A stretch of DNA of 64,000 nucleotides from Myxococcales bacterium (GTDB lineage Bacteria; Myxococcota_C; UBA6777). Made by a program: the position numbers and the translations under genes. The DNA lies in NCBI GenBank assembly GCA_020632975.1, contig JACKEL010000001.1:151983-215982 (forward strand), given 5' to 3'. Below are positions 18,232 to 42,763 of the stretch, in pieces (position 1 is the first letter of the stretch; each line of letters opens with the position of its first letter). Below the pieces are notes generated by a model. It searched no databases. It had not been told where the DNA came from and worked only from the letters and a program-made list of their open reading frames with translations.

Positions 18232-20766
18232 CCCCCAGCCTTCTCGCCTTCTTCGTACCGCAAGCAACAAGAACAATCCAAACAAACCACCCAACCATGC
18301 GGTGCCTTCGACCGATTGGCAGCCCATCCGCATCAAAGGTGCGCAGTTCGGGCCTTCACAAGCCGCTTGCGAGACCTGACAGATCTCCTTCGAACTATCG
18401 CACAAATAAGAGCTTGTGCTTTTGGACTCTTCCAACCAAGAGATCGGTGCCCCTTCTTGGCAGACCCCTTGGTAACAAGATGCGCCATCTGCACAACCGC
18501 AGTCCGCAGCGCAACCAGAGCAGTCCTCACCAAAGCTACAGACACCATCGCCGCAACGCGGTGCTTGCTCGTTTTCGTTGCAGTATCCGAGACCTCCAGC
18601 CAAACTCACCTGACAAAATCGACCACTTGGACATCCATGGACCGCAGAGCATCCACAAAACCCTTCATTCGGCTTGTTTCCAGGGATCACACATGCGCCA
18701 CCAGTGACCGAACAACCACCAGCTTCGCCAGGAACACAAGGTTCCAAACAGACCGAACCTTCACTGAGGTTCGCGCAAACCAAACCTGTTGCACACGCAT
18801 CCAAGGCCGAACAACGCTCACCCACGCCACGCGCTCGGCGACAAACACACGCCGCGCTATTGACATGACAAGCCACATCTTTGCTTGCATCGCGGCAGGT
18901 GGTGCCCGCCATACAACCGACTTCACCTAGCGTAGGAGGAGGAGGCGCACATGCCCCGATATCTTTGCGGAAGATCTGTTGAAACAAACCCTTCTCACAA
19001 CGACCCGTTTTGCACTGGCTATCTTGTGAACACACGCAAGACTTCCCTACACCCGTGATGTTCATGCAGCTACCACCATTGGAACAGTCTGCGTCAACCT
19101 CACAACGCTGTGCAAAACAAACAGGCGAGGGATAACCGATATCCGCGCAAAATCCGCCCAAGCCACACGCACCATCTCGACAAAAAGATCCAGGTGTTCC
19201 CAAAGAACGCTCCAACGCTCGTTGGGCAGGAGCTCCACAAAGGCGCTGACAAACACGTTTGTTCTCGTGGTTGTAGGCACACTGCAATCCAGGGGCACAG
19301 GGATGTGCATCATCGCATGACTGCTCAAGAGCCCGACCTTTGGGCATTTGACACTGGCCCCCACGACAAACTTGGGAACCCGAACAGTCGCGATCACTTT
19401 GGCAACCACACATCCCGCTGACAGGTACGCAAGAACGACCGCCGCCGATCTCTTGGCAAGCATAACCCGAAGGACAAAAGACCCCAGCTTCACACGCTTG
19501 CAAACAACGAGAGGTCTCAGCACCCAACTTCACGCATCGCTGACCCACTGCACAAGTACCACTTTGACAAGCTCCACATGCCCCCGCAGCCACCGCCACA
19601 TCAGGAACAGAACACTTCCCAGAGCGACAGATCTCACCAGCACCGCAGTCATCATTTTTCTTACAAGTGGTTTCAGAACACGAGCCCGCCAAAGGCAAGC
19701 ATTGTTTGACACCTTGGATCGTTCCGCAAGCATAGCCCGCAGGACAAGCATCATCGCGTCCACAAGTCTGCAAACAACGATATCCTTCCGCCAAACGAGC
19801 ACAAAAATTCCCGTTTCCACCGCACTCTTGCGAGACAGAACAAGGACGACAAAGACGCCCATGACTCGCGGCTTCAGTCGGCACACAAACACCATCTCGA
19901 CACTGTGCCCCCACACCACACGAGCTATCTCCTTGGCACGCGGGGAACTCTTGCTGCTCGACTTGTTCCATCCAACTTCGATAGACATCCACGCGGAAAG
20001 CAACCGAACTACCGTCACAACGAGACTGTCCAGTATCGTCTTTGGTGCCCATCCCATAAGAGATCACACCTGCAACAACCAAACCTCCCGACTCTTGGAG
20101 CAAAACAGGACCGCCTGAGTCACCACTACAAGCACTGCGTCCCATCGCATAACCTTCGAGGCGATCCGCTTGCATCTTCAACAAAGGCAAGATCGCTTGA
20201 AAACGACGCTTCGCACCCACCACAAAAGGAGTCGTCTGCAACAGACCGTAGCCTGTCCACACCATCTCTGTACCAATCGCCAAAGAGTCCATCGGACGGG
20301 AAACAACAGGCAAAGGCTGCGCGTGATGAACCACACGATCCAAAAACAAAAGCCCCAGATCATTTTGCGGGACCTGTCCAAGCTCCGCTGACGAAGCGGG
20401 ATGCTCGATGGCTTTTGTGACTGTGTAATAGGCACTTGAGATCTCGCCATGGATGGGAAGATCCAAACGAAACTCCACGGGAGTCCCTGCTTTCATCAGG
20501 CGATGGATCTCTTGGATACAGTGGGCTGCCGTCAAAACGGTACGCCCTTGAATCAAAGCACCCGAACAAAAAGGAATGCCTCGTCGCGCAACCAAAGCCC
20601 CGACCCCTTGCATCCGCTCTGCGGGAACGCCCCCGATGATCTTTTTCTCCTGGACCCCGATCTCTTCGGGGCTATATTCGTTTGCACATCCCATCGCTAG
20701 GAGCGCCAAACCTACCAAACAAAACAAGCCTACCCAACGAAAAAGCCCGCTTCCGTGCCGCTTCAT
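18217..20766 (-). CDS. secreted trypsin-like (S1) serine protease lipoprotein with about 15 Cys-rich modules and C-terminal MYXO-CTERM-type sorting tail
   Basis: Start MKRHGSGLFRWVGLFCLVGLALLAMGC (lipobox). Catalytic triad His in TAAHC, Asp in QNDLGLLFL, Ser in GDSGGP. Repeated C-x3-DC-x2-G-x2-C-x3-G-x-C modules follow. The C-terminus is ...[36 protein letters not shown] (GC, hydrophobic span, Arg cluster). Confidence 0.8.
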   Translation of the reverse strand: MKRHGSGLFRWVGLFCLVGLALLAMGCANEYSPEEIGVQEKKIIGGVPAERMQGVGALVARRGIPFCSGALIQGRTVLTAAHCIQEIHRLMKAGTPVEFRLDLPIHGEISSAYYTVTKAIEHPASSAELGQVPQNDLGLLFLDRVVHHAQPLPVVSRPMDSLAIGTEMVWTGYGLLQTTPFVVGAKRRFQAILPLLKMQADRLEGYAMGRSACSGDSGGPVLLQESGGLVVAGVISYGMGTKDDTGQSRCDGSSVAFRVDVYRSWMEQVEQQEFPACQGDSSCGVGAQCRDGVCVPTEAASHGRLCRPCSVSQECGGNGNFCARLAEGYRCLQTCGRDDACPAGYACGTIQGVKQCLPLAGSCSETTCKKNDDCGAGEICRSGKCSVPDVAVAAGACGACQSGTCAVGQRCVKLGAETSRCLQACEAGVFCPSGYACQEIGGGRSCVPVSGMCGCQSDRDCSGSQVCRGGQCQMPKGRALEQSCDDAHPCAPGLQCAYNHENKRVCQRLCGAPAQRALERSLGTPGSFCRDGACGLGGFCADIGYPSPVCFAQRCEVDADCSNGGSCMNITGVGKSCVCSQDSQCKTGRCEKGLFQQIFRKDIGACAPPPPTLGEVGCMAGTTCRDASKDVACHVNSAACVCRRARGVGERCSALDACATGLVCANLSEGSVCLEPCVPGEAGGCSVTGGACVIPGNKPNEGFCGCSAVHGCPSGRFCQVSLAGGLGYCNENEQAPRCGDGVCSFGEDCSGCAADCGCADGASCYQGVCQEGAPISWLEESKSTSSYLCDSSKEICQVSQAACEGPNCAPLMRMGCQSVEGTAWLGGLFGLFLLLAVRRRREGWGLGRG

Positions 20767-20843
20767 CGCACTTCTCCCGTCCCGCATCCCTTGCAGGAAT
20801 TATTCAGAAAAATTCTTAGATGAGATATGCCATCAAGGAGAGA

Positions 20844-23024
20844 TTAGGAGGCGATTTCCAAAGCCACGATCTCGTCCGAAAGATGGCGATGAAGGGAAGA
20901 CTTTTGCTCAGAAAAAGCTGTATTTTTTCGTTGAGAGAGCACCAATGAGGTCGCATCTTCTTCGTACAACGGCCGCGAAAAATAATATCCTTGGCCCATA
21001 CGACATCCGTCTTCCCAAAGAAGCCGATGTTGGCGCGCTGTCTCGATGCCTTCCGCGATCACACCCAACTTGAGATGGCTCGCAAGAGACAAGATCATGT
21101 GGATGATAGACCGCCCACCTTCTCGTTCTTCCATGTTCCTAACAAATGAACGGTCGATCTTGATCGCATCTATAGGGAATTGATGAAGATAACTCAAAGA
21201 AGAGTATCCTGTCCCAAAGTCATCCATGCAGATCTCAACCCCTAAACCCCTGAATTGATGAAGTAAATCAATCGCAACTTTGGTATCTTCCATCAAGATA
21301 CTTTCTGTGATCTCGATCTTCAACCAAGAGGCATCGATCCCTGTTTCTCGAATCAAGTCCGACAAACGCTCGACCAAAGCTGGCGTCGCAAACTGCTTGC
21401 TCGAAAAGTTCACATGCAAAGAGAGGATATCCTCCCGACTTCTCATGCGATTCCACTCTGCAATCTGCTTGCAGGACTGCTCCAAAACCCACCAACCGAT
21501 CTTGACGATCGCTCCTGTCGCCTCCGCCAACGGAATAAACTCAACAGGTGAGATCATCCCTCGTTCTGGATGGTGCCAGCGCAACAGAACCTCAAATCCC
21601 TTCAAATCGCCCTTGTCTAGGGAAACAAGCGGTTGGTACATCAACACCAGCTCACCTCGATCACTGGCTCCCCAAAGATCTTGCTCAAGTTGAAGGCGCG
21701 AACGAAAGCGTTGTTGTGCTTCTGCATCGAAAACTCGATAAGTTCCAGGGCTTTCGTCTTTGACCTGACGCAACGCCAAGTGCGCAGCAGCCAGCAACTC
21801 ATCCGCAGTGGAACACTGCTCGTGAAGATAAGAGATCCCACAACTGATGCTCGGATGATACTCGAACCCACCCAGATCCACAGGATCGTTGAGATGGCCC
21901 AAACAGTCTTGCGCAGCCAAACAACTCTCTCCTACAGAGCCTGTACCACGAAAGACCACCGCAAACTCATCGCTGCCCAAACGACCGAGGAAAAGACTGC
22001 GCGGTGTACACTTCAACAGCCTTTGCGCAAGCGTTCGCAACAAACGATCGCCCGTCGAAATCCCCCAAGTATCGTTGACTTTAGAAAAGCGATCCACGTC
22101 AAACAAAAACAATGTACAGCCATTTTCAGGTTGTATACCCTGCTGACACTCCCGTCGCAGCGACTCCATAAACGCTTCTCGATGCAACAAACACGTCAGC
22201 AGATCATGTTGGGCACGCAAACTCACATGTTGATCTGTTTTCATTCGGCGTTTGATCGCTGACATCGTGCCAATCACACGCAAAGGACGACGAGCGGGGC
22301 CATACACACAAAGACCGCGAAGTTGTACCCACAAACGCTTCCCATCCTTCGAAAGAAAACGCAGCTCGTGGAAGAAAGATTGCTCACCGCGCTCCAACAT
22401 CCGGGAGATCAAACGTTGAAGCTCAGTTCTTTCCTCTGGATGAGAAAGCCGCAACCACTCCTGAAAAGACATCACGCCCGTATCCCCAGGAAGATAGCCC
22501 AACAAACGCTCGCAACCCGAATACATCTTGACCTGGTGAGTCTCGCAGTCCCACTCCCACAAGTGATCTCCCGAACTCTGCGCCAACAAAGCACGCACAC
22601 GCTGGATACGATGTTGCCTGTCTGCACCATCGCGCTCCTGTTGCGCAGCACGCAAAAACAAACGCAGCGTCTCGCTTGTTAACCACTTGAGCGGGATCCC
22701 CAAAGAGATCTCAGACCACATCTCTTGGGGGATGTTCTCAACGTTCAACCCTCCCAACAAAACAATGCTAAAGGACTGATATTGTTGGAGACACAAACGA
22801 TACAGCTTCGCATAATCATAAAAGTCATGCGTCGAAAGAAACAACACAGTAAACTCTGATCGCCCCAGTGCTTCCATCTCCTTCAAATCTGAAACAAAAT
22901 GAAGAACACTTTGGATGGCTGGGTCTTCTGGCCAACGCTGACGCAAGGCTTCAAACTCCCCAACGTCTTTCCCAAGAAAAACAGAAAGAAAAATAGAAGG
23001 TTCATAGTTTACATTTTCTGGCAT
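20844..23024 (-). CDS. PAS-GGDEF-EAL c-di-GMP turnover protein (GGDEF variant RLGSDEF; EAL variant EVLLR)
   Basis: PAS-like region WEWDCETHQVKMYSGCERLLGY. GGDEF domain with RLGSDEFAVVF. EAL domain with EVLLRWHHPERGMISPVEFIPLAE and DDFGTGYSSL. ATG 23024. It lies 77 bp upstream of the protease gene on the same strand. Confidence 0.85.
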   Translation of the reverse strand: MPENVNYEPSIFLSVFLGKDVGEFEALRQRWPEDPAIQSVLHFVSDLKEMEALGRSEFTVLFLSTHDFYDYAKLYRLCLQQYQSFSIVLLGGLNVENIPQEMWSEISLGIPLKWLTSETLRLFLRAAQQERDGADRQHRIQRVRALLAQSSGDHLWEWDCETHQVKMYSGCERLLGYLPGDTGVMSFQEWLRLSHPEERTELQRLISRMLERGEQSFFHELRFLSKDGKRLWVQLRGLCVYGPARRPLRVIGTMSAIKRRMKTDQHVSLRAQHDLLTCLLHREAFMESLRRECQQGIQPENGCTLFLFDVDRFSKVNDTWGISTGDRLLRTLAQRLLKCTPRSLFLGRLGSDEFAVVFRGTGSVGESCLAAQDCLGHLNDPVDLGGFEYHPSISCGISYLHEQCSTADELLAAAHLALRQVKDESPGTYRVFDAEAQQRFRSRLQLEQDLWGASDRGELVLMYQPLVSLDKGDLKGFEVLLRWHHPERGMISPVEFIPLAEATGAIVKIGWWVLEQSCKQIAEWNRMRSREDILSLHVNFSSKQFATPALVERLSDLIRETGIDASWLKIEITESILMEDTKVAIDLLHQFRGLGVEICMDDFGTGYSSLSYLHQFPIDAIKIDRSFVRNMEEREGGRSIIHMILSLASHLKLGVIAEGIETARQHRLLWEDGCRMGQGYYFSRPLYEEDATSLVLSQRKNTAFSEQKSSLHRHLSDEIVALEIAS

Positions 23025-23305
23025 GGTAATTCCCTTTCTGCTTACAAGGATGCAACTGTTTTTCTGAAACAAAAAGAGAGGACAATGTTGCATATTTTCC
23101 CGAAAGCCCGAACTCGACAGAACAAGATGTGTGAGAAAGATAAAGAATGAAATATCATTTATCTTTCAAGAGATAAGCGCAAATATCACTTCTTTCTGGT
23201 ACGAACAAACAAGAAAGAAGCTGCGATCTTCTGTTTGCGTATGGGATAGAACGTCTACCGTGATAAAACCTTTAGACCCTTTCCATACATATCCCCAAAG
23301 ACAAC

Positions 23306-23678: not shown

Positions 23679-24836
23679 ATGTTGGATCATCACAAAGAAC
23701 CTACCCAAGACGTACAGTTAGTCCACCAATCCAAAAGTGCTTACAAAGCAGCGAACTACAATCACATGCTTGATCGAGCAAGCGAGGTAAAACAACCCGA
23801 AAAAGAATTACAACGTTTGACCACACAACGTAGAAAACTTTACGATCACTACCGAACTTTCGAAGCTCATCGCCAAGTAGATCCTGAAAGCATCCAAGAG
23901 ATGCACAATATGTTGTTGCGTATCTTTGCCAAACCTCACGATCTTCCATCGCTTTATACGCAACTTGAAGAAGAGTGCGAAAAAGAACTCGCACAAATAG
24001 AAGAATTATTTACAAAGTGCCAAAAAACCCTAGCGATGTGGACAAAAGTAAGCGACGAGATTCGCCATCGCTTGCGGCTTTTGGACTCTTTAGAGATCCG
24101 CCTAACTCTTTTTGCACAGAAAAAAGAGGCAGCGGAAAAAAATCAAAAAAAAGCGACTGAAAAAAACCAACAGAAAAAAGAACGACTGGATATTGGGAAT
24201 TGGCAAGCAAACCCCACAGACACAATTCCTGATCTCCCAGCAGCGACCGAAAGTTCGAGAACGCAAATGAAAACGCACCAAACCATAAACCTAGGCAGCC
24301 CAGTCACACATACGGCTGAATACGCAGCGGCTGCGGCCCCAGCTCCACAGTTGTACCAGTTCCAACAACCACTGGTACCTCCAAAGTTGCCTGAGGCTCC
24401 CCCAAAAACGGTTCAAGCCAAAGCGCCGTCACCCATGCAAACCTCAACACCAAGCGAGCAAGCAGGCGCAGAACGCAGACGCGCTCCTCGGTTGCGCCTT
24501 GCTTCGGATATCACCATCGGAAGAGAGGAACACTGCTTCTTTACAGGATTTTCCGAGAACATCAGTTCAGGTGGAGTCTTCATCGCAACCTATGAAGCTC
24601 TTCCCAAAAAAGGCTCGATTTATGAGCTTTGTTTCTCCCTTCCTACGGGTGAGATCATCCAAAGCGAAGTCGAAGTGATGTGGTCACGTGACTTCAACGA
24701 ACAAACGCCCGAGATCTCCCCAGGATTTGGCTGTCGCTTTCGACAGCTCAAAAAAGCCGATCAAGAACGCATCGATCAATACATCGCCAAGGAAGGCTCT
24801 CTCTTCATGCTTGAAGAAGAAGAGTTGGCGGCTTGA
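23679..24836 (+). CDS. PilZ-domain c-di-GMP-binding protein with N-terminal coiled-coil region
   Basis: C-terminal PilZ signature RRRAPRLR...DITIGREEHCFFTGFSENISSGGVFI (RxxxR plus D/NxSxGG). Long coiled-coil, Lys/Glu-rich N-terminal half. Confidence 0.75.
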   Translation: MLDHHKEPTQDVQLVHQSKSAYKAANYNHMLDRASEVKQPEKELQRLTTQRRKLYDHYRTFEAHRQVDPESIQEMHNMLLRIFAKPHDLPSLYTQLEEECEKELAQIEELFTKCQKTLAMWTKVSDEIRHRLRLLDSLEIRLTLFAQKKEAAEKNQKKATEKNQQKKERLDIGNWQANPTDTIPDLPAATESSRTQMKTHQTINLGSPVTHTAEYAAAAAPAPQLYQFQQPLVPPKLPEAPPKTVQAKAPSPMQTSTPSEQAGAERRRAPRLRLASDITIGREEHCFFTGFSENISSGGVFIATYEALPKKGSIYELCFSLPTGEIIQSEVEVMWSRDFNEQTPEISPGFGCRFRQLKKADQERIDQYIAKEGSLFMLEEEELAA

Positions 24837-24859
24837 CACTCCAAGAAAGGACCGCAACC

Positions 24860-25228
24860 ATGAACAGCATCACTGAATTTCCCGAAGAGCGTTTGTCAGA
24901 TCATATCACCCCTTCTCAGGAGATCTTCATGAGCGAAACTTCCGAGAATTTGGATCGCAGCTATCACCCTGACTTTGTCCGAAAACAATCTGTGCGTGTT
25001 CGTGTCCTCTTGACCAACGGCAAAAACTGCATCGGAAACTGCCATGTCCTTTGGCCCGATGGCCGTGTCAGCGATGTCGTCAACGACGATCGCAGCTTCT
25101 TGATCATCACAGATGCGTCCGTTGAAGGCGAAGCCCAATCCTACAGCGTGCTCACCCTCAACAAAACCCAAATCGCGATGCTTTTTGAGATCCACAACGC
25201 CGCCAACATCCAAGAAGAGTCGGCATAA
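24860..25228 (+). CDS. hypothetical small protein, likely co-transcribed with the PilZ gene
   Basis: ATG 24860 with AAAGGA 9 nt upstream, 24 nt after the PilZ stop. 122 aa. No recognised motif (VRVLLTNGKNCIGNCHVLWPDGRVSDVV...). Confidence 0.4.
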   Translation: MNSITEFPEERLSDHITPSQEIFMSETSENLDRSYHPDFVRKQSVRVRVLLTNGKNCIGNCHVLWPDGRVSDVVNDDRSFLIITDASVEGEAQSYSVLTLNKTQIAMLFEIHNAANIQEESA

Positions 25229-26278: not shown

Positions 26279-26588
26279 CCAACAAAAAAAGCCAATACGA
26301 CCACCGCTTCATGCCCACTGTAGGCCTGCTCTCTCCCCAAAGGAAGAGCAACGCATCCTCCTCTCCCTCCAACGCAACACAAAACGACGCAGGACTCGTT
26401 CGTTCGTCCAAGAAACCCCGCCAACAAACGCTGAACCAACGAGAAGTCGCTTCACACCCGCAAGGTTTCGTGCCAAGATAGCCAAAACGATCATCCACGG
26501 GGACAAAAGAACTATAGATATCAGCTACTTTTATCCCCCCAAAAGAAAAGAATGCGCACAGCGCGCCAAAAGCATAAAGGAGCGAGCC

Positions 26589-29500
26589 TTGTTGGGGTCA
26601 TGGAGACAAGCAGGAAAGTTTTGGGGCCTGTTGTTTGGATTATGTTTTTTGGGGGCTTGTTTTTCGAACGCGCCAGCTCCCGAACAACTCAAACACAAAC
26701 AACAAGCCATCATCGGAGGCCAACCCGATCTGCGCTATCCAGGCGTAGGTGCGCTGACCGTCAACCGCTCCTCTTTTTGCACGGGAACCTTGATCGCCAA
26801 ACGCGTTGTATTGACGGCGGCTCACTGCGTGGACGCGGCCAACAGTTATCGCGGAGCATCTGTGGAGTTTCGCATCGATACGCCCGATGCCAACGCATCT
26901 TCGGGTTACCAAACCAATTACTTTGTCTTTGATCCCGACCTCTTCAAAACACATCCCATCTGGAACACCAATCTCTCCAATGGCGGTGATCTTGGGATCG
27001 GGATCTTAAAACAAAGCGTCACGGTTGCCCAAACCATCCCCGTGAACTTCAACACCAATGCTGGTCTTTGGTCCAACAAAAGCCCGCTTTTCCTAGGTTA
27101 TGGACTCTTACAAAGTACACCCACACGGATCTCCGCAGATCGTAAATATGGGGTAGAGATCCCGATCGTGCAGGTCAATACGGATCGCTTTACGCACCAA
27201 GCCAACGGAAAAAGCGTTTGTCACGGAGACTCAGGTGGTCCTGCTTTGGTCCTCGTCGATGGAAAAGTCCGCGTGATCGGCGTCAACTCCTATGTATCCG
27301 CAGCATCCGTCCCTGGCGCCAACCCACCTCGCTCAAGTTGCACGGGCTCGGGAACCTCTATGCGGACGGATACTTACAGCACTTTCGTTCAATCGGTACT
27401 CTCTAGCTATGGTGATGGTCCTGAACCTTGCACACAAGACGAAAACTGCGGTGTTTGCCGTCGCTGCGGTGCCAACAAGTTTTGCGAAGGGGTACCCATC
27501 CAAGTCTCCCCCAGCATCTGTGGGGCTTGCTTGGCAGACAAAGACTGCCCTGGGGGTGGCTGTTATCGCTTCCCTGAAGGCAACCGCTGCTTGCTTCAGT
27601 GTGACACCCAAAACTGCTGTCCTGACGGTCATTATTGCACGACTGTACAAACCTCCTCAGGGCTCAATAAAGTCTGTATGCCTTTTGAAGGTGCCTGTCC
27701 TCCCCTTCAATGTAAGACATCTTCTGACTGTGGCGCAGGAGAGTTTTGCGAAAATCAAAAGTGCCAACCCAAGCCTGTCGCCCGAGCAGCCGACCTTTGC
27801 AAACCTTGCCAAACCCAAGCAGACTGCCAAACCACAGGAGGGTACTGTCTTGGCTTGGAAGGACATCGCTATTGCACACAACCCTGTAACGCTGGGGATT
27901 TCTGCCCTGCAGGATACGCATGCCAAGAAGCCTACCCAGGCATCCCCAGACAGTGCTTGCCAGAAAATGGCGCTTGCCAAGTGCCTTGTATGTTCGACAT
28001 CCACTGCCCAACAGGACAAACTTGTGTAGGTGGCGTTTGTGCAGAGCCACAAGGCGGAGATGCCGGGGCATCTTGCGACCCTGTCCCATGCAAAGAACCC
28101 CTTTCTTGTGTCTCCACCCTAAGCGGAAAACGCTGCCTTTCGACTTGCGGCGCCCCCCCCTCCAAACCCGGAAGCGCTTGCGCTGATGGGACGCGATGTG
28201 ATGCGCCCATGTCTTGCTACAGTATCTCTTCCACCCAACAGATCTGTCTCCACCCCTGCAACGCTGACGAAGACTGCAACAAAGTGGGGGGTGGCTTTTG
28301 TTACCAAAGCGTCTGCGCTTGCCAAAAAAGCCAAGACTGTGGACAAGACTTTATCTGCAACACAAGCTCAGGTGTGATCGGGGCTTGCGTCTCCAACAAA
28401 GACATCCAATCCTGCGAAAACAGCGACGCTTGCGACGCCTTCCAAGGTCAAAGTTACTGCATCCAACCCAACCCCGGTACACGCGCCTTGGGGCAGTCTT
28501 GTGACCCTCTCAACCGCTGCAAAGAAGGGCTTGTCTGCACCAAAAGCAACGATGGATATTTCTGCGCAGAAGACTGTAGCCAAACCCAAGCCTGCAAGTT
28601 TGGCGGATACTGCGGAAAACCCAACACACAAGTTGACATCTGTTATTGTGCGGAAGACAAAGACTGCGGCCCAGATTACACTTGTAGCCGCGTATTTCGG
28701 CCTTTTGGTATCTGTGTAGGAAAGCTCCTCAACAATCCCTGCCAAAGTGACGGTGCCTGTCCCCCTGGATTTGCTTGCCGTGAAGGTCGATGCCTATCCC
28801 CCACAGAACTCGAACAGTGGAAACCCGAACCTGCTCCACCCGATGCAGGCCCCGAATCCCCCACAGAGTCCGCGCTCGAAGCAGTGCAAGAGTCCCCCAA
28901 AGAAGCGACCCCCGAACCCCAAGTGGAGCCTACCCCCGAAAGACAAGCCGAGGCACCCGCAGAGATCGCACCCGAACAAACCAAACCAGGATGCGGTTGT
29001 CAGTCTTCTCCTACACCATCCACACCCTTTTCATGGGGACTTTTGATGCTCTTCGCCTTGCTCTGGCTCCCTCGCCCCAAAAAACGCGAGATCCGCCTAA
29101 AAGAAATACTCCCTACTCTGGCTTTCTTTTTTCTTACAGGCTGCCCCAATCCTTCGGTCCCTTGTAGCCAAGACACAGAGTGCCCAACCAACCAGCGCTG
29201 CCAAAGCGGGACTTGCCAAGCTGGCTCCTCGGAAACCACCACCCCAGAAAAAACCACAGAGCCCCAAACAGAGTTGACCCCCGAACGCACGCCCGAACCG
29301 ACCTCCGAGCCTCAAGCAGAGCCGAGACCAGAACCTCAAGTGGAGCCTGCCCAAGAAGCGTCCCCAGAACCTCAACCCGAGGCAGGACCCGAACCTCAAC
29401 CCGAGCCTTTACCCGAACAACTCACAGATATCGCCCCAGGCCAACGCCCCAACCCCTGCGCCCACACCAACGATCCGACATGTTGTTCTCCCACCATTTT

Positions 29501-32500
29501 ACAAAGACGTTGGGAAGCTTTTAACGACAACAACAGTCGTTTGGGCATCATCCGCATCGCGCTCAGTCCAGACGGAAAATGGATGGCGTCCGTCAACGAT
29601 GAAGGCCGCATCGTCCGCATCTGGGATATCGACAAAGGGCAACTCAAGTACACTTTTGTCGAGCCCAGCAGCACCATGCAAGCGGTCTCTTTTAGTCCTG
29701 ATAGCCAAGTCGTCGCAGCAGTCGGTAGTGATCGCGTCGTGCGGCGATGGAGCCTCAGCGATGGAACGACACTGCCCTTACTCCAAGGACACACAAGCAC
29801 CGTCTATGCGGTGGCTTTTAGCCCAGACGGTCAGTGGATCGCGAGTGCAGGCGCAGATCGCGTGATTCGCTTATGGAAAGTAAGCGACGCAAGCCTTACC
29901 TTCGAGATGAAGGGACACACCAGCACGATCTGGACCTTGGTTTTTGCCCCCGACAACAAGACGCTATACTCCGCATCCAGCGACCAAACCATCCGTTACT
30001 GGGACGTCAGCACAGGAAAAGAAACCCAACAATACAAGCTACATACCGCAGCAATCCGCGGTTTAGCGATCAGTCCAGATGGAAAAACACTCGCTTCTGT
30101 CGCTCTATCTCCCGATCGCACCGCAAAGTTGATCGAGGTCGCCACAGGAAAAGAACTCCGCTCATGGCAAGCCCACGGAAGCAGTTCATTGTACGGCGTC
30201 GCTTTCAACCACGATGGAACGCGTCTCGCGACCGTCGCAACCGATCGCTATGTTCGTGTGTGGAATGCCAATACAGGGCAGATGCTCTACCAACATCGTG
30301 CAGACGCAACGCCCTACAGTGTCTCTTTTCACCCGGATAAAACGAGGATTTTTGTCGCCTCATCCGATCAACATGTACGCATCTTCAATGATACCAGCGG
30401 ACAAGTGACACAAACGCTCCACACAAACTTCGACCGTGTTTCAAGCGTTGCGATCTCACCTGACGGAAAAGTCGTTGCTTTTGCCAACGCTCGCATCAAC
30501 AACATCCAGCTTTGGGATCGCCAAACCAAACAGCTTCTGCGCACACTTCAAGGACATACGCATGGGGTTCGCGCCCTCTCCTTTAGCGCCAACGGACAAT
30601 ATCTCGCCTCCGCCTCGACAGATCGCAGCGCACGGATCTGGAATCTTTCGGATGGAAGCCTCGTTCGCGCGCTAGACGCCCATCCCATGGTCGTAAGCAG
30701 CGTCGTACTCAGCGCCAATGGAGAAACCGCCGCAACAGGTTCATGGGACGGCAAGATCCGCATCTGGAAGATCGCTGACGGCTCTCTCTTGCGCACACTC
30801 GAAGGACACACCAGAGAGATCGTCCATCTCGCCCTATCTTCGGATGAAAGTGTATTGGTCTCTTCTTCGATCGATCAAACAGCGCGTTTGTGGCAGTGGT
30901 CAGATGGCGCCCCCCTGCAAACCGTACAAGCCAACGCACCAGTCTACGGTTGTGCGATCTCTCCAGACAAAAACACCCTTGCTGTCGGCGATTGGGAGGG
31001 GCGTATCCTCCTTTGGCAAGCTAGCACGGGCATGTTGCAAAGCACACTCCAAACCCACAGCGCCAATGTCCGCAGCCTCGCCTTCGACGAACAAGGTGCG
31101 TGGCTGGCCTCTGCTTCTTATGATCGTACCGTTCGGATATCGCGGGTCAGTGATGGAGCGCTCCTCCAAACCTTGCGACCACGCAACCAATACGTCACAA
31201 GCGTTGTCATCCAAAAAGAGACACTGGCAACCGCAGGAGCGGACGGAAACGCCGACATCTGGGACTTTCAACCCGTCCCGCCGGTCACGAGTCTGGCAGA
31301 ACAAAAGAGCCCCATCCTCGCTCTCTCTCTCAGTGCGGACGGCAACCTGATCGCAACAGGGACAGCCGACCATCAGGTCCGTGTATGGGACCGAACCCAA
31401 AAGACGTGGCTTCACACCCTGTCAGGCCCACAAGATGCGATCAATGCACTCGCAATAAGCCCTGACCAACGCTTTTTGGCCGTTGCATCGGCCGATCGTT
31501 CGATCTACGTCTGGAGCCTCGCAGATGGCAAGCTTTTGCGCGCCTTCCAAGGACAACAAGATCAACCATCCTCTGTCTCGTGGAGTCCAGACAGCAACGT
31601 CTTGGCTGTGGGTGCTTGGGACGGTAGTGTCCGAACTTGGGCTTGGCGCTCAGGACTCAACCAAAGAACCTTTCTTACAAACAACAGCCGAACCTTGAGC
31701 GTGGCCTTTAGCCCTGACGGAAACAACCTAGCAGCGGGACTTTTCAATCAAGAGATCATGATCTTTGAAGTCGCTTCAGGCAAACATCTCCGCACGCTCC
31801 AAGGACATACAGGCGGCGTAACGCATCTGCTGTTTTCAAGAGATGGAAAAAGCCTTTATTCGGCCTCTTACGATCAAACCATACGCATCTGGGACAGCAG
31901 CGCAGGAAACCTCCGCAACACACTCCAAGGACACAGCAACACGGTCCAACAAGTCAGCCTGAGCCTCGACGAAAGTCTCCTTCTATCAGTATCTTGGGAT
32001 GGGACACTACAGATCTGGGATCTTGCCAATCTTCAAATGCTTCAAAGAATCCATCTTGACCAAGGCGCCCTCTACAGCGCAGCTTTGAGCGCAGACAGTC
32101 GCTTTTTGGTTGCAGGTGGCGCAGATGGCGAGCTACGCAGCTGGGACCTTTTGCGCGATCCTCGACAACAGATCCTCGAACGTAATCCCCTCAGCGTCCG
32201 CGCATTGGCCTTCAGCATAGACGGAAACTACTTGATCTCAGGCAACGACAACGGTCTCGGACGCATCGATCGTCGTAGTGACTGGCGCTGGCTTCACTCG
32301 ATCTACAGCCACAGCGCAGACCTTCGCGCCATCGCGATGAGCCCCGACAGTTCGCGCTTTGCGACAGTGGGTGCAGACAAGCGCGTCCGCGTCGCAAGCA
32401 CCAGCGACAACAAAGAACAATTCAACGACAACAAACAACACACAGCCCCCCTCCACGCCGCAACCTTCAGCCCAAATGGTCAAACTTTGGCCACCGCAGG

Positions 32501-33041
32501 CGAAGACAAGCAGATCCTCCTTTGGTCGATGAGCACCAATCAAGTGACCCAAACCCTCACCGGACACACCCAAACCATCACGGCTCTGGCCTACCACCCC
32601 AAAACAAACTGGCTCGCATCTTCTTCGCTCGACCAAAGCATCCGACTTTGGGACCCCACCAACGCCACGATCCTCCGAACCCTTTCAGGACACACCCAAG
32701 GCGTCATCAGCTTGGATGTCCACCCCCAAGGAAACGTGCTCGCATCTGCCGATCAAGGCGGAGAGATCCGCATCTGGGATACACAACAAGGCACCACCCT
32801 ACAGACTCTCACCTCCAACGTCGCCCCCACCCAACTGCGTTTCAGCCCCAACGGACACTGGCTTGCCATCGCTTACATCGACGGGCACGTTGAACTTCGA
32901 GAGACGATCTCTTACAAAGTCTCCCACACCTTGCAACTCCAACGCATCCCAACCTACGCCCTTGCGTGGTCCGCGGATGCCCAAACAATCGCCCTTGGCG
33001 ACCAAGCCGCAGGGATCTCGCTGTTCACTTGCAGCCCCTAA
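26589..33041 (+). CDS. giant lipoprotein: S1 serine protease, then Cys-rich modules, a PE-rich linker, an internal MYXO-CTERM-like segment, a second lipoprotein-like signal, and about 28 WD40 repeats
   Basis: TTG 26589 is preceded by AAGGAG at 6-nt spacing. The track ORF from 25989 would overlap the rhodanese gene. Signal [25 protein letters not shown]. Triad TAAHC / NGGDLGI / GDSGGP. More than 15 Cys modules, then ...[36 protein letters not shown], then [18 protein letters not shown], then WD40 units ([30 protein letters not shown]... repeated to 33041). Confidence 0.8.
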   Translation: [2150 protein letters not shown]

Positions 33042-33089
33042 CACCACAAAAATCCTCCTGCAACCGCACATTTGAAGGAAGAAGGCCCC

Positions 33090-34019
33090 ATGCCATCCAT
33101 CTTAGCCAACCAAATCCACCTCGAATACGAAACCTTTGGCGACCCAGCACACCCCAGTGTGCTCTTGATCATGGGCTTGTATATGCAGATGCTCGGATGG
33201 CCCGAGGCATTCTGCCAACAGCTCGCGGATCAAGGCTTCCATGTCATCCGATTTGATAACCGAGATACTGGGCTTTCTGACAAGTTTCACGGTATGCAAA
33301 CCCAACCCATCTGGCGCATGTGGCTCCTTCAACGCCTTGGATTGCAGCTATCCTCTCCCTACACACTGCACGACATGGCACTCGACGCAGTGGGGCTTTT
33401 GGATGCACTCGATATCTCAACAGCTCACGTCGTTGGCGCCTCCATGGGCGGCGCCATCGGCCAGATCCTCGCAGCACAACACGCAAATCGCGTTCGCAGC
33501 TTCACATCCATCATGTCTTTTTCGGGAGATCCAAGGATACGCATCGGAGACCCCCGGATACTGCTGTCTTTTATGAATCGCCCTCGCACCCCTGAAGCTG
33601 TCCTTCAAAATGCTGTCCGCTTTTGGCAGATGATCGATAGCCCCAACAACCGCATCCCCGACGAGGAGCTACGCCAACGCGTGCAGAGTGCTTTCGAACG
33701 CTCTTTTTATCCCCAAGGCTTCCGCAGGCATCTCGCTGCGATCCTCGCCTCAGGAGATCGTTCTGCATTGCTGCGACAGATCCGCGTCCCCACGCTGGTC
33801 CTGCATGGCAAGGATGATCGCCTTGTGTACCCAGATGGAGGACGCGACACTGCAAGCAAGATCCCCGACGCACGCTTCCATCTCATCGAAGGCATGGGGC
33901 ATCTTCTTCCCCCCAATCGCTACACTGCTATCTCTCGTATGATCGCGCAGCACGCGCAAGAAGCAGATGCTCGTTACCAAGAGCGCCGCCTCCAACACCA
34001 TATCCGCTACCCCTTTTGA
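33090..34019 (+). CDS. alpha/beta-fold hydrolase
   Basis: Nucleophile elbow VVGASMGGAIG. C-terminal HGKDDRLV...MGHLLP. GAAGGAAG RBS before ATG 33090. Confidence 0.75.
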   Translation: MPSILANQIHLEYETFGDPAHPSVLLIMGLYMQMLGWPEAFCQQLADQGFHVIRFDNRDTGLSDKFHGMQTQPIWRMWLLQRLGLQLSSPYTLHDMALDAVGLLDALDISTAHVVGASMGGAIGQILAAQHANRVRSFTSIMSFSGDPRIRIGDPRILLSFMNRPRTPEAVLQNAVRFWQMIDSPNNRIPDEELRQRVQSAFERSFYPQGFRRHLAAILASGDRSALLRQIRVPTLVLHGKDDRLVYPDGGRDTASKIPDARFHLIEGMGHLLPPNRYTAISRMIAQHAQEADARYQERRLQHHIRYPF

Positions 34020-34039
34020 ACGAGCCCCCCCTCAAAGTC

Positions 34040-34810
34040 TCAAAATGATTCAAAATCATCTTTCGTGTCTCGTACAGAGAACCAAGCACGCCCAATCTGC
34101 GACCGATCATCCATCATCAATATCAAGGCAGTATCTCGATGTGAAACGATTTCGAGAAAGCAGTAAGCCCCGCCCACAGACAAAAAGTACTCTTCGACAT
34201 CATTTTTGCCTTGCGCTTCCTCTTGCAAAAACGGTCGCAAGGGATTGTCCAAACAAATCCGTAAGATATCTGACGCAAAGTTCGCAACACTTTTGGGTGT
34301 GGCTTCTTCTTCTTTGATATCTTGCAGGTAGATCCCCCGCAGCTTTCGTGTAGAGATGCTAAAGACCGCAGCAGCGGCCGAACCATCCATCTCTGTCGCC
34401 ATCCTTTTGCAAAGACGGCTGATCAACTGCATCTCTTGGAGAGAGCGACGCTGTTCCGAAGACGCCTCATTCGATGGAGAGGATGAGATCTGGAGCTTTT
34501 CTTCCTCGAAAGGTGCGTAAAGCAACAACCCTCTAGGAGACGAAACGGGCGCGGCAGACAACTCGTCGCTGCTCTCCCTTCGTACAGGCTCCGCGATCTC
34601 TTCGTTCCCAAACAACAAAGACGCAGGTGGCACAATCTTGCCGAAAGTCCCAATCTCCGTATTGGTCTCTCGACCCTCGCCTTCAAACAAAACCTTTAAA
34701 CTTGCTCGGAGGATATCGTTCACTGTCATTTTAGCCCCCAGCTCTGATGTCGTTCTCATCTGCGCACCATCCATAGTAAGCATAGACGGATGTTGTGCGT
34801 TTACATCCAT
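34040..34810 (-). CDS. hypothetical protein; C-terminal about 120 aa possibly Roadblock/LC7 (MglB-like) fold
   Basis: The C-terminal pattern AAAAVFSISTRKLRGIYLQD...YFLSVGGAYCFLEIVSHRDTALILMMDDRSQIGRAWFSVRD resembles a roadblock strand-helix-strand core. The start is uncertain: ATG 34810, 34783, 34774 or 34729. Confidence 0.3.
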   Translation of the reverse strand: MDVNAQHPSMLTMDGAQMRTTSELGAKMTVNDILRASLKVLFEGEGRETNTEIGTFGKIVPPASLLFGNEEIAEPVRRESSDELSAAPVSSPRGLLLYAPFEEEKLQISSSPSNEASSEQRRSLQEMQLISRLCKRMATEMDGSAAAAVFSISTRKLRGIYLQDIKEEEATPKSVANFASDILRICLDNPLRPFLQEEAQGKNDVEEYFLSVGGAYCFLEIVSHRDTALILMMDDRSQIGRAWFSVRDTKDDFESF

Positions 34811-35107
34811 CTATACCTGTCTTTTTTCGGCAAAAAAATCTTCAAGAGATCTTGTCTCTTGTAAAAAATCACGTTCTTGGAAAGCTATACGGACGCTAGT
34901 CAGCAAACTCCACACAAAAAGTGCAAAATGTTGCAGATGTATATCTATCCATAAATAGAATTCATACAGTAGAGAAAGGACATCATGAGCAAAAACAACC
35001 AGCGATAAACCATTCCCAAACTGTTCGACCCACGCTGTTGGATTTGTTCCTGACAGTGTGAGACATGTCAGGCATATCAAAGATCATGCCACCCCCTGTA
35101 AGATCCC

Positions 35108-35914
35108 CTAGAGCTTCACGTCGCAGTGTCCCTCACCATCGATGTGCCCCAAGGTGCGACTAAGGTGCTCAACAAAGGCTCGCAGATCTTTCACTTCTGC
35201 AAATCTCCCCACACCATAATGCGCCAAGCCCGCAAAATCCGCCCCATTGACGGCCGCAAGCTCCTCCAAGGTGATCTTACCATCGTTGTCTTTGTCTGCG
35301 TCTGCGATCGTTTGGAAACGTACCTTGGCATCGGGATCTTCGAGATCATCATAGAAGAAGTGGTCTGCATGGATGGTGAGCTGCGTCTTGGCGGTCGCGC
35401 CCACTTGCACAACAGCCCGCTCTGACTTGCATCCTGTGTATTGTGTGTTTGTCTTGAACCCCCAAGCAAAAGTCTTGCTTTGACCGTCTTTCCGCGCGGT
35501 ACCTTCCAAGTAGATCGAATAGCCCGCATCCTTCATCATCTTTGCATCTTCAGCGCTCGCGTTACCAACTTGTGTTTCTGCGTTGGCGGGCGAAACAGAG
35601 TACGCCAAACGATCCCATGTCCCCGAAGGAATCACGAACTCGCTTAAAAGCTGCTCACCTTTTTCTCGGAGATTGAAGACCTTAAACCCCGCAACACTCG
35701 GTCCTGTAGCCCCTGCCGCAGAGCCTGTCTCAATGCCTCCAACCACCACAAGAAACTTCGTAAACTCGATCTCCCAACCATCCACAACCTCTGTCGCAGG
35801 GATCTTTTCCTCGATAAAGGCCTCTCCCCACACGGATACAGCGAGTTTTCCATCGCCACCACATCCCACAACACCCAAGAAGAACAATGTCCCCAGAAGC
35901 ATGATCTTACGCAT
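35108..35914 (-). CDS. lipoprotein with canonical EF-hand Ca2+-binding loop
   Basis: Signal MRKIMLLGTLFFLGVVGC. DKDNDGKITLEE matches the 12-residue EF-hand loop (D1, D3, D5, G6, I8, E12). Confidence 0.55.
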   Translation of the reverse strand: MRKIMLLGTLFFLGVVGCGGDGKLAVSVWGEAFIEEKIPATEVVDGWEIEFTKFLVVVGGIETGSAAGATGPSVAGFKVFNLREKGEQLLSEFVIPSGTWDRLAYSVSPANAETQVGNASAEDAKMMKDAGYSIYLEGTARKDGQSKTFAWGFKTNTQYTGCKSERAVVQVGATAKTQLTIHADHFFYDDLEDPDAKVRFQTIADADKDNDGKITLEELAAVNGADFAGLAHYGVGRFAEVKDLRAFVEHLSRTLGHIDGEGHCDVKL

Positions 35915-35954
35915 ACAAATGCCCTTTCTCCATCAAGAGAATTCCTAAAAAATC

Positions 35955-36686
35955 TCAATAAAAAAGCGAATAAGAGGTGCTTTGAAGCACCGCTTTTCGC
36001 AGGATATTGGTTTGTGTCTCATCAGGACGCTTACGAGAAGGAACTTTCTCATCTTGAGAAAATGCCGAAAAGTCCGTCAACTCGAACCAATGCGCGAGCT
36101 GCACAGAAAACGTGACTGGCTTTTCCCCAGAGCTGATCGCATGTTCAAACGCAAGCCCTGACAGAGAACGTTTCTCCAAAGCGATCTCGCAGGCAAACTT
36201 GACCTCCACACCATCTTTTGAAGCGGTGCCACGGAGGGTTGCGAGATCGGTCGCCTCAAAGGTAAACTCCGCCGCGCCGTAATCGCCCGTAAAAGCATCC
36301 ATCTTTCCGACTTCTTGATCGCCTGTTCCTAGAAGATCGAGCGGTTTGGCCGCGATCCACTCTGCTTTCACAGAGCCACCTTCAAAGTGCCCAGGATGCG
36401 CCCAAGCGGTCCCCACAAGACTGTCCGCAAGATGGCGCAATCCCCAACGCGGCAACGTCCGCAAGCTGTAGGCGGGCGTCCCTTCGTACAGACGAAAAGC
36501 TTGGAAACTGACTTGGGCTTGTTCCAAATCGATCTTCCACCCCGAAGCCGCCACAAAAGACGACGCTGTCGGGCGATATTGTAAGGTCAGTGTGATCGGC
36601 GAAACCTTGGGTGCCCCACAAGCCACTCCAAACAGCCACAGCCCCACCACCATCAGCCCCATCCCTGTAAGGAAACGAATACGCAT
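35955..36686 (-). CDS. hypothetical lipoprotein
   Basis: MRIRFLTGMGLMVVGLWLFGVAC lipobox. No catalytic motif. It lies immediately downstream of the TonB-dependent receptor gene on the same strand. Confidence 0.45.
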   Translation of the reverse strand: MRIRFLTGMGLMVVGLWLFGVACGAPKVSPITLTLQYRPTASSFVAASGWKIDLEQAQVSFQAFRLYEGTPAYSLRTLPRWGLRHLADSLVGTAWAHPGHFEGGSVKAEWIAAKPLDLLGTGDQEVGKMDAFTGDYGAAEFTFEATDLATLRGTASKDGVEVKFACEIALEKRSLSGLAFEHAISSGEKPVTFSVQLAHWFELTDFSAFSQDEKVPSRKRPDETQTNILRKAVLQSTSYSLFY

Positions 36687-36700
36687 CACTTCACCTCGTC

Positions 36701-41019
<4,319 letters not shown>

Positions 41020-41026
41020 GAGGCCC

Positions 41027-41377
41027 ATGGAAGATCCGAAAACAAAGCCGAGCTCTGTGCCTTCCTCTCCTTCGAAGCCTTGGCCCGAACATGTGGGACA
41101 CCGCGAACAAAGAAAGCTGCGCGCACGCCAAGAGGGGCGACCTCATGTCTGGTTTGGCTTGGGGATGTTCGGGCTGATCGGTTGGTCGATTGCGCTTCCA
41201 ACCGTGTTGGGCGCTCTGTTGGGGGTTTGGATCGACCACAGATGGCCGAGTCGTTTTTCTTGGACGCTGACTCTGATCTTTTTGGGCCTTCTGTGGGGCT
41301 GCAACCAAGCTTGGTACTGGATCACCAAAGAAAGCCACCAACAACAAACCCAAAAACCACCCAACGAGGACAACTAA
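41027..41377 (+). CDS. atpQ: N-ATPase accessory membrane protein (AtpQ/AtpZ-like, 2 TM)
   Basis: Small protein with two TM helices (VWFGLGMFGLIGWSIALPTVLGALLGVWI; WTLTLIFLGLLWGC). Its position between atpC and atpB fits the N-ATPase gene order. Confidence 0.5.
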   Translation: MEDPKTKPSSVPSSPSKPWPEHVGHREQRKLRARQEGRPHVWFGLGMFGLIGWSIALPTVLGALLGVWIDHRWPSRFSWTLTLIFLGLLWGCNQAWYWITKESHQQQTQKPPNEDN

Positions 41378-41381
41378 TCCC

Positions 41382-41705
41382 ATGTTACCGCTTACTTTTT
41401 GGGGTTTAACCTTTTCTTTTGTTGCAGGGCTGTTCATCGGCGGCATCTACTTTTGGGGCCTGTGGTGGACCACCCAACGACTGCCTCATCTACGCAGCCC
41501 GGGCGTTTGGCTGCTTGGGAGCTTTGCGCTTCGCATGGGGCTTGCATTGGTGGGCTTTTATCTGGTGATGCAAGGGCGCCCAGAGCGGTTGTTGTTGTGT
41601 ATGGTTGGCTTTTGGATCGCCCGCCTTGCATCTGTTCGTATGGTCCCAGCCTCTCCACCTCGATCCCCCTCGAAGCCCCCTGAAACCTCGGAGGAATCGG
41701 TATGA
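41382..41705 (+). CDS. atpR: N-ATPase accessory membrane protein with Arg in TM helices (AtpR-like)
   Basis: 107 aa with 2-3 TM helices carrying Arg (SFALRMGLALVGFY; FWIARLASV). Directly precedes atpB. Confidence 0.5.
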   Translation: MLPLTFWGLTFSFVAGLFIGGIYFWGLWWTTQRLPHLRSPGVWLLGSFALRMGLALVGFYLVMQGRPERLLLCMVGFWIARLASVRMVPASPPRSPSKPPETSEESV

Positions 41706-42406: not shown

Positions 42407-42428
42407 CCACAAAAAAGGAGTTCCTCTC

Positions 42429-42719: not shown

Positions 42720-42763
42720 GCAGAACATCCGAAACAACCGCACATTGCGCAAAGGAGCCGTTC

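Follow-up and report, generated by a model that had tools for sequence, protein, structure and literature searches.

An apparent in-frame fusion of a protease gene and a WD40 lipoprotein gene in uncultured Myxococcota, with two sorting signals at its junction

The stretch of DNA analysed here, hereafter the window, comprises 64,000 nucleotides of a marine myxobacterial genome (contig JACKEL010000001.1, positions 151,983 to 215,982), and its forward strand carries at 26589-33041 a single stop-free open reading frame (ORF) of 2150 codons. An initial annotation, made from the letters alone, had read this ORF as an S1 protease joined to a WD40 protein through a MYXO-CTERM-like sorting segment and a second lipoprotein signal, and had proposed either two genes fused in frame or one precursor designed to be split internally. 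The uninterrupted frame holds, and its translation is that of GenBank entry MCB9641566.1 (2150 aa, entitled "trypsin-like serine protease [Myxococcales bacterium]"). Moreover, the comparisons described below support a genuine in-frame fusion of neighbouring genes that were formerly translationally coupled. As predicted from sequence, the product of the first gene (gene 1) would be a lipoprotein whose S1 protease sits on a Cys-rich stalk and which ends in a MYXO-CTERM, and that of the second (gene 2) a lipoprotein with 28 WD40 repeats.

The reading frame and its junction

The TTG start codon of the fused gene is found 6 bases 3′ of the Shine-Dalgarno (SD) sequence AAAGGAG (Table 1). The same frame is open for 600 nt further upstream (25989-26588, + strand), which would give 2350 aa from a TTG at 25989. 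This C/A-rich tract (GC skew -0.38, AT skew +0.40) overlaps a rhodanese gene on the opposite strand (25265-26278), and is probably non-coding on the + strand.

The protease half opens with a lipoprotein signal peptide (SP1), whose lipobox matches the PROSITE-type core at the customary N-terminal position and whose Cys24 is invariant among 17 aligned homologues. The Pfam Trypsin family (PF00089) matches residues 42-239 of the domain that follows (E = 4.7e-18, 66.3 bits against a cutoff of 20.6). The triad residues H79 (26823-26825; TAAHC), D134 (26988-26990) and S215 (27231-27233; GDSGGP) are invariant in the 17-member alignment, so that the trypsin-like domain appears catalytically intact, as had been predicted. 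The Cys-rich stalk shows weak matches to Dickkopf_N, DUF7107 and Myxo_Cys_RPT, every one of them below cutoff; its four-Cys units bear out the count of more than 15 modules given initially, and both of the Pro/Glu-rich linkers reported then are present as well.

At the end of the first linker lies a segment that appears to combine all the sequence features of a MYXO-CTERM signal except for its C-terminal position, and which we call an internal MYXO-CTERM-type signal. It starts with a GCGC motif, whose cysteines C802 and C804 are invariant in 17 homologues, and continues into a hydrophobic helix and a basic cluster. The hidden Markov model (HMM) search that the initial annotation had suggested as a check of this segment came out in its favour: an isolated piece of 67-69 aa scores 26.2-26.3 bits with TIGR03901 (cutoff 20) and 20.0-20.1 bits with TIGR03382 (cutoff 15.85), and, when scored within the 834-aa N-terminal part, the segment falls just under the first cutoff (19.6 bits) and stays above the second (17.4 bits). 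A MYXO-CTERM is expected at the extreme C-terminus, and both the paralogue within the window and the orthologues that are not fused indeed have it there, but here 1316 residues come after it in the same ORF.

The loop that separates this segment from the next one is basic and 11 residues long in the window protein. Thereafter comes a second signal peptide (SP2), with R836 and K838 followed by an uncharged core and by LTGC (Cys852), which fits both the PROSITE-type and the classical L-[ASTVI]-[GAS]-C patterns, in agreement with the lipobox proposed initially. SP2 likewise appears to hold all the sequence features of a lipoprotein signal save the N-terminal position, its cysteine being residue 852 of the ORF, and we call it an internal lipoprotein-type signal. 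The lipobox Cys is kept across all fused and unfused orthologues.

The initial annotation had stated that the junction contains neither an in-frame stop nor a canonical start, and only the first part of this statement stands. No ATG, GTG or TTG occurs in the part of the window ORF that links the basic cluster to the lipobox Cys, but three such codons are found in frame slightly upstream (TTG 29043, ATG 29046 and TTG 29058), all of them within the MYXO-CTERM helix. No SD site is present at the head of SP2 (ATC 29091; free energy +1.9 kcal/mol). The TAA noticed in the +1 frame at 29098-29100 is indeed there, and deleting one A from a run of six (A6) in the basic cluster would end gene 1 in PKNARSA at precisely this stop, which may be a trace of the ancestral frame.

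Strong hydrophobicity is confined, in the regions for secretion and anchoring, to SP1, the helix of the MYXO-CTERM and the core of SP2, with an additional weak stretch in the WD40 region at about residue 1370 (maximum 1.85). AlphaFold2, run on the single sequence of the 91-aa junction, places helices at 813-826 and 837-849 with a 10-residue loop between them.

The WD40 half begins with a further Cys module directly after the lipobox, as had been described and as is also the case in the unfused gene-2 products. Together with linker 2 and a conserved CAHT..CC segment, this module takes up residues 852-984. Its repeats score 643.9 bits with Pfam WD40 (PF00400), with beta-propeller families also matching, and the initial estimate of about 28 repeats turned into exactly 28 by iterated HMM search. 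As 4 x 7, this number would suffice for four predicted 7-bladed propellers.

Table 1. Features of the fused gene, followed by neighbouring genes in the window (positions from the first letter of the window; signals and domains as predicted).
Feature	Position	Strand	Evidence
Fused protease-WD40 gene	26589..33041	+	TTG start, TAA stop 33039-33041
Shine-Dalgarno AAAGGAG	26576..26582	+	anti-SD duplex -7.9 kcal/mol
SP1, lipoprotein signal, residues 1-23, with lipobox Cys24 (FLGAC)	26589..26660	+	hydropathy, PROSITE-type lipobox
S1 trypsin-like protease domain, residues 41-273	26709..27407	+	PF00089
Cys-rich stalk, residues 274-739, 466 aa	27408..28805	+	70 Cys, about 17 four-Cys units
Pro/Glu-rich linker 1, residues 740-800, 61 aa	28806..28988	+	28/61 residues Pro/Glu
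Internal MYXO-CTERM-type sorting signal, residues 801-834	28989..29090	+	TIGR03901/TIGR03382, hydropathy
GCGC motif, residues 801-804	28989..29000	+	sequence; C802 and C804 invariant
MYXO-CTERM helix, residues 814-827, 14 residues	29028..29069	+	11-residue Kyte-Doolittle maximum 2.55
Basic cluster PRPKKRE	29070..29090	+	sequence
A6 homopolymer	29079..29084	+	sequence
SP2, internal lipoprotein-type signal, residues 835-851, with lipobox Cys852 (29142-29144)	29091..29144	+	lipobox patterns
Cys module of WD40 half	29142..29225	+	sequence
Pro/Glu/Thr-rich linker 2, 72 aa	29226..29441	+	35/72 residues Pro/Glu
Conserved segment CAHT..CC..L.RRWEAF before first propeller	29442..29540	+	76% identical to locus L002
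28 contiguous WD40 repeats, residues 981-2150	29529..33038	+	iterated HMM, exactly 28 domains
Unfused paralogue, 856 aa: S1 protease, Cys-rich region, true C-terminal MYXO-CTERM	18217..20787	-	TIGR03901 20.0 bits
PAS-GGDEF-EAL protein gene	20844..23093	-	
PilZ-domain protein gene	23679..24836	+	
DUF6812 protein gene	24833..25228	+	
Genes for alpha/beta hydrolase, EF-hand protein, TonB-dependent receptor	33072..38866		
Alternate (N-type) F1F0 ATPase operon	38930..46087	+	beta, A and alpha above cutoffs of TIGR03305, TIGR03306, TIGR03324
Ser/Thr kinase gene, 1150 aa	48876..52328	-	
GH9 cellulase-like gene with Laminin_G_3, 1153 aa	54745..58206	-	
Second Ser/Thr kinase gene	60508..62052	-	

Fused and unfused relatives

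The fused frame is not confined to one assembly. A second metagenome-assembled genome (MAG), GCA_020633035.1, encodes a protein (MCB9638203.1) identical at 2147 of 2150 residues, with three substitutions, no gaps and the same junction including A6. The Logan assembly of the reads of SRR12358675, which covers 28934-35026 of the window, differs by 3 mismatches in 6093 nt, contains no insertion or deletion (indel) and is identical at every base of the junction. In the closest other species of the GTDB genome set, the locus L002 (JAKLKB010000140.1, Myxococcota MAG.451) shows a single ORF of 2173 codons with the parts in the same order and with identities of 70% and 61% for the two halves. Both loci can be regarded as orthologous because a conserved ATPase gene lies downstream (88% identity), and near the L002 junction neither alternative frame holds a stop able to restore two genes. 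Of the two observations that the initial annotation had named as fatal to its proposal, neither was made: no stop plus start stands at the junction in the second MAG, the Logan assembly or L002, and the sorting segment does score as MYXO-CTERM. Between the window and L002, identity is 41% in the MYXO-CTERM, 35% in SP2 and 26% in SP1, so that the junction appears to diverge as fast as the certainly functional SP1.

Two minor ideas about the frame were dropped. Programmed frameshifting is not needed by a continuous ORF, and the "ARS" encoded in the +1 frame of the window and L002, which recalls the EARS end of the unfused orthologue P0001 and would point to a one-base insertion in an ancestor, is a three-residue match too short to serve as evidence.

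A word-indexed protein search gave about 85 relatives of the gene-1 product (815-940 aa), each with S1 protease, Cys-rich region and terminal MYXO-CTERM. This search recovered unfused relatives only, although fused proteins are in the collection it covered; the window's own protein and four other fused ones came from an exhaustive phmmer search of residues 1-985 against 1.84 billion representatives. In the four closest unfused relatives (L001, L161, L162 and L163), a second gene follows immediately downstream of the protease gene on the same strand. In three of these (L001, L161 and L162) it lies in a different frame from gene 1 and encodes a signal peptide ending in Cys, followed by the Cys module and linker known from the fused protein and by WD40 repeats, of which 24-26 were detected; the contig of L163 stops about 90 bases into gene 2, and this locus probably carries the protease/WD40 pair too. 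These two-gene orthologues bear out the proposal of two genes fused in frame. The lipobox Cys occupies positions 23-36 in the unfused gene-2 products.

In the unfused pairs the two genes either overlap or are separated by a single base. The stop of gene 1 and the ATG of gene 2 overlap as ATGA in L001 and L162, and are found as TAAcATG in L161 and as ATGtaTAA in L163. Gene 2 starts at an ATG preceded, within the gene-1 tail, by a strong SD site of -8.5 to -11.4 kcal/mol, against a background of in-frame positions with a median of -2.4 and a first percentile of -9.2 kcal/mol. This strong site is lost in the fused forms. The ATG is gone in both the window and L002, whose ATC codons give +1.9 and -0.1 kcal/mol, respectively, and at the Met codons retained at the head of SP2 in the fused proteins P0122, P0123 and P0124 they are -0.4 to -5.6 kcal/mol. 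No WD40 neighbour was found in the more distant paralogues examined (36-44% identity). A scan of metagenome contigs with generic trypsin motifs yielded at least one distant orthologue, L081, among the matches listed.

Apart from the window's own protein, the exhaustive search recovered four more fused proteins of 2162-2275 aa: P0122 (2243 aa, 48% identity to the window), P0123 (2275 aa, 49%), P0124 (2197 aa, 44%) and P0125 (2162 aa, 44%). Their DNA shows in every case an undivided ORF whose only stop is the terminal one. Two Joint Genome Institute (JGI) samples contain P0123 in identical form, P0124 is known both from an NCBI MAG and from a Logan assembly, and the P0125 cluster has four members. 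The six fused junctions follow a common order of Cys motif, helix, basic cluster, loop, hydrophobic core and lipobox Cys, with loops that are unrelated in sequence, 11-51 residues long and net positive in 6/6 cases (+3 to +7). Four of the six internal segments pass the TIGR03901 cutoff, and the internal segments score equal to or above the true C-terminal tails of unfused relatives (11.8-17.7 bits). The PROSITE-type lipobox core is found in five of the six. The junction of P0123 (5590-5740 of L167) has the 51-residue loop, which ends in an intact M-QHRW signal-peptide head and resembles sequence that once formed the tail of gene 1, or lay between the genes, and is now read in frame; its fusion event would therefore differ from that of the window.

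The gene-1 part was used for a neighbour-joining tree (816 columns, 200 bootstraps), which unites the WD40-partnered proteins in one clade (82%), with fused and unfused forms interleaved. The window and L002 group with the unfused P0001 (90%), the fused P0123 groups with the unfused P0002 and P0003 (74%), P0122 pairs with P0125 (84%), and monophyly of all fused forms was obtained in 0% of the replicates. Therefore, at least three or four changes of state have to be assumed.

As to the direction of these changes, fusion appears to have occurred several times in this family of gene pairs, and we think it probable that the tree records repeated fusion instead of repeated fission. The ancestral gene-1 stop would have overlapped or abutted the ATG of gene 2, so that a single-base indel in the gene-1 tail would read into gene 2. 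When such changes were made in silico in the last 60 nt of gene 1, 224 of 228 one-base insertions (L001, L162) and 43 of 62 one-base deletions (L161) led to an ORF of more than 1900 aa. A fused gene ancestral to the whole WD40-partnered clade, which later gave rise to the two-gene forms by repeated fission, is the unlikely converse. By the count of events it does about as well, as three to four fissions fit the neighbour-joining tree about equally parsimoniously as three to four fusions, and this count speaks against our preference. However, each fission would require a stop, a start and an SD site to arise together, with 4/4 unfused junctions showing a canonical strong SD and ATG, whereas a fusion takes one one-base indel in a target of some 40-60 nt. 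Furthermore, no loop sequence or length is common to the six fused junctions, as expected of independent events that share only their logic, and the WD40 partner is entirely missing from the more distant relatives that serve as outgroups.

Relatives of other kinds also occur. The window holds an unfused paralogue, 34% identical, some 6 kb upstream of the fused gene and on the opposite strand, which has no WD40 partner and faces a gene for an RND efflux permease. Two further proteins, P0073 (1190 aa) and P0083 (1189 aa), have their Cys-rich stalk interrupted midway by a WD40 block (about 300 aa, probably one propeller) and end in a normal terminal MYXO-CTERM; judging by this architecture, they appear to be a second, independent joining of an S1 protease stalk to WD40.

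Topology and processing of the fusion

A signal peptide crosses the membrane outwards, while its basic n-region stays on the cytoplasmic side. In the current model for MYXO-CTERM proteins, the helix spans in the opposite sense, inwards, its basic tail is cytoplasmic and the signal is cleaved by the myxosortase MrtX (PMC11980579). If these rules are applied to the fused protein, SP1 would start export of the protease half through Sec, the MYXO-CTERM helix would stop transfer, the short loop would remain cytoplasmic, and the hydrophobic core of SP2 would re-initiate export. A cytoplasmic position of the loop agrees with the positive-inside rule, each of the six loops having a net positive charge. 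Such a hairpin would put the GCGC cysteine and the lipobox Cys852 both on the periplasmic face, as they are in the two-gene form, and therefore the fusion should disturb neither pathway.

Through the action of Lgt and LspA, the WD40 half would emerge as a lipoprotein of about 142 kDa that starts at Cys852. MrtX, cutting at GCGC, would detach the protease half, of about 82 kDa, which would be displayed at the surface via the type II secretion system, and a hairpin peptide of about 5.6 kDa would remain. The mature products of the fused gene would in this manner equal those of the two-gene form, in a fixed 1:1 ratio. Hairpin insertion, cleavages, lipidations and final location are all proposed steps, with a topology derived from the sequence and from rules of membrane insertion. 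The split of a precursor, which the initial annotation had set against a gene fusion, is compatible with it and is the mechanism we prefer as plausible. For the whole explanation, namely a fusion tolerated through the hairpin and through cleavage into the two ancestral lipid-anchored proteins, we would give a probability of roughly 0.6. A narrower proposal is more tentative and falls short of even odds: that the protein is a selectively maintained membrane polyprotein, a hairpin substrate of Sec that would be cut and lipidated by myxosortase and Lgt/LspA into 1:1 products, and that would have arisen several times by one-base mutation in an overlapping-gene layout.

In favour of a processed precursor, 6/6 fused lineages retain both key cysteines, the two uncharged hydrophobic stretches and the basic residues, with a junction identity of only 35-41% between the window and L002. 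A number of observations point the other way. The internal segments of P0124 and P0125 fail the MYXO-CTERM model, and the lipobox of L002 has Pro at -4 and Phe at -2. The two-helix model of the junction is of low confidence (mean predicted local distance difference test score, pLDDT, 58). No gene for a CPBP-family myxosortase, Lgt or LspA was found among the scanned ORFs of the 64-kb window. Finally, a word search of the literature returned no report of LspA acting on a lipobox after a transmembrane helix or on an internal lipobox in bacteria, which is weak evidence, and the only conceptual analogue it gave was the mitochondrial tandem precursor Arg5,6, cut by MPP, the processing peptidase of mitochondria (PMC8734313). 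Elsewhere in the window, the protein with a terminal MYXO-CTERM suggests that the sorting pathway exists in this organism.

The predicted topology would be identical if the fusion were real and one or both internal signals went uncleaved, which would leave a single inner-membrane protein held by the hairpin and an N-terminal lipid, with stalk and propellers in the periplasm. Cleavage in the protease/WD40 fusions is something we infer, two of the internal segments are poor as MYXO-CTERM and one lipobox is atypical, and P0073 and P0083 hold a WD40 propeller permanently inside the protease stalk, so that covalent linkage is tolerated. We nevertheless regard an uncut protein as improbable: under mere hydrophobic anchoring it would be unexpected that the GC-motif and lipobox cysteines are kept in all six fused lineages while the surroundings diverge freely, the repeated interchange of fused and unfused forms in the tree suggests equivalent end products, and the central sorting signal of the archaeal protein HVO_0405 is cleaved, as described in PMC7157517.

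A very improbable explanation is that translation starts internally and so provides an additional, or even the main, supply of a separate WD40 half, with initiation at ATG 29046, at ATC 29091 or at the Met found at the head of SP2 in P0122, P0123 and P0124. ATG 29046 is preceded by an SD-like GGGGA (-5.5 kcal/mol), and the equivalent ATG of L002 reaches -7.0 kcal/mol, at about the 5th percentile of the in-frame background, but these SD-like runs stem from conserved Trp-Gly codons, and the leader resulting from a start at 29046 would be atypical, with 32 residues and a missing basic N-region. An SD is lacking altogether at ATC 29091, and the fused forms have lost the strong sites of their unfused counterparts even where a Met persists. 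Moreover, gene 1 has no stop, so its ribosomes must run on into the WD40 half. As a non-canonical start, ATC 29091, which is conserved in L002, was discarded as the main route, given that no SD is seen in either genome and no equivalent codon in the other fused lineages.

Lastly, a one-base sequencing or assembly error, for instance in A6, that had joined two ordinary genes is effectively refuted: an A5 version would end in a tail resembling the QEARS terminus of the unfused orthologue P0001, but three assemblies agree on A6, among them a second MAG with three amino-acid differences and an independent assembly from raw reads, L002 and four more lineages are fused through quite different junction sequences, and the hypothetically corrected gene 2 would lack both a start codon and an SD site.

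Genomic context, implications and known systems

Directly 3′ of the fused gene in L002 lies the operon of an alternate (N-type) F1F0 ATPase, and in the window about 5.9 kb with three kinds of genes intervene between the two (Table 1). The genes just upstream of the fused gene are related to cyclic-di-GMP, a neighbourhood that is not common to the other loci examined. Other large genes of the window encode two Ser/Thr kinases and a cellulase-like protein, and the overall gene content is typical of Myxococcota.

What emerges from the comparison is a gene pair conserved among uncultured Myxococcota, for an S1 protease on a stalk with MYXO-CTERM and for a predicted four-propeller WD40 lipoprotein, whose repeated covalent linkage argues that both parts work jointly at the cell envelope. 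The independent joining in P0073 and P0083 likewise argues that protease and WD40 modules act together. Since both signals are kept in fusions that recur, a tag normally found at the C-terminus and a lipoprotein signal normally found at the N-terminus may also work internally, and the complementary topology of the two would make fusion close to neutral. If the tentative polyprotein proposal is true, these genes would offer evidence from nature for the action of both LspA and MrtX on signals inside a protein, as well as a ready-made reporter for the lipidation step of MYXO-CTERM proteins. As a test substrate for studies of myxosortase and of that lipidation step, the protein would distinguish an uncut form of about 230 kDa from cut forms of about 82 and 142 kDa, and could show whether LspA accepts a lipobox after a transmembrane helix. 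For annotators, labels such as "trypsin-like serine protease" or "MYXO-CTERM domain-containing protein" hide the composite nature of these entries. Specialists in protein sorting gain a natural experiment, and no current view is overturned.

The initial annotation knew of no described protein with such an architecture, which was too strong a statement in view of two precedents. The first is MXAN_5598 of Myxococcus xanthus, whose internal MYXO-CTERM is attributed, in the account of Guo, Haft and Wall (mBio 2025, PMC11980579), to a probable fusion of two TraA/TraB-like genes, and whose N-terminal part is proposed there to be still processed and surface-anchored. As in the window protein, its C-terminal part is described as belonging to the envelope, so that passage through the inner membrane is needed for this part too, and its unfused equivalent, TraA/TraB, has overlapping ORFs. 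By that description MXAN_5598 joins an adhesin to an outer-membrane beta-barrel/OmpA protein, unlike the S1 protease stalk and 28 WD40 repeats found here. The window protein also differs in having a signal peptidase II-type signal with lipobox after the sorting signal, so that both halves would be lipid-anchored, and its type of fusion occurs in several lineages beside unfused orthologues.

The second precedent is HVO_0405 of Haloferax volcanii, a two-gene fusion with a central tripartite signal of the PGF-CTERM type, the cleavage of which by the archaeosortase ArtA was shown experimentally (Abdul Halim et al. 2017, as reported in PMC7157517). Here too, a tripartite sorting signal of C-terminal type has become central. 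HVO_0405, however, is an archaeal substrate of the twin-arginine translocation (Tat) pathway, its archaeosortase is Cys transpeptidase-like and not a CPBP glutamic protease, its fusion is strain-specific and not recurrent, and no second lipoprotein signal appears in the description given in PMC7157517. In common with the fusions of both precedents, the window protein has two-gene orthologues (L001, L161, L162 and probably L163), and the tripartite signal is kept at the fusion point.

A third relevant system is TraA/TraB itself, in which the gene for a surface protein with Cys-rich stalk and MYXO-CTERM lies just upstream of, and overlaps, the gene for its partner envelope protein (PMC11980579). 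The orthologues that are not fused have this very layout. In place of a protease TraA contains a recognition domain, TraB is OmpA-like and not a WD40 lipoprotein, and no homology is detectable beyond a weak similarity of Cys repeats (TIGR04201, 18.3 bits against a cutoff of 25). VesB of Vibrio cholerae is also an S1 protease with a C-terminal sorting tag, in its case a GlyGly-CTERM processed by rhombosortase, so that both signal and enzyme differ from those of the window protein, and VesB has no Cys-rich stalk, partner gene or fusion. Altogether, the principle of a central sorting signal in a fusion protein is already described, and what the present genes add is the family itself, the lipoprotein-type signal that follows at once upon the sorting tag, a fusion that recurs, beside unfused orthologues, in no fewer than four to six lineages, and a one-base mutational path.

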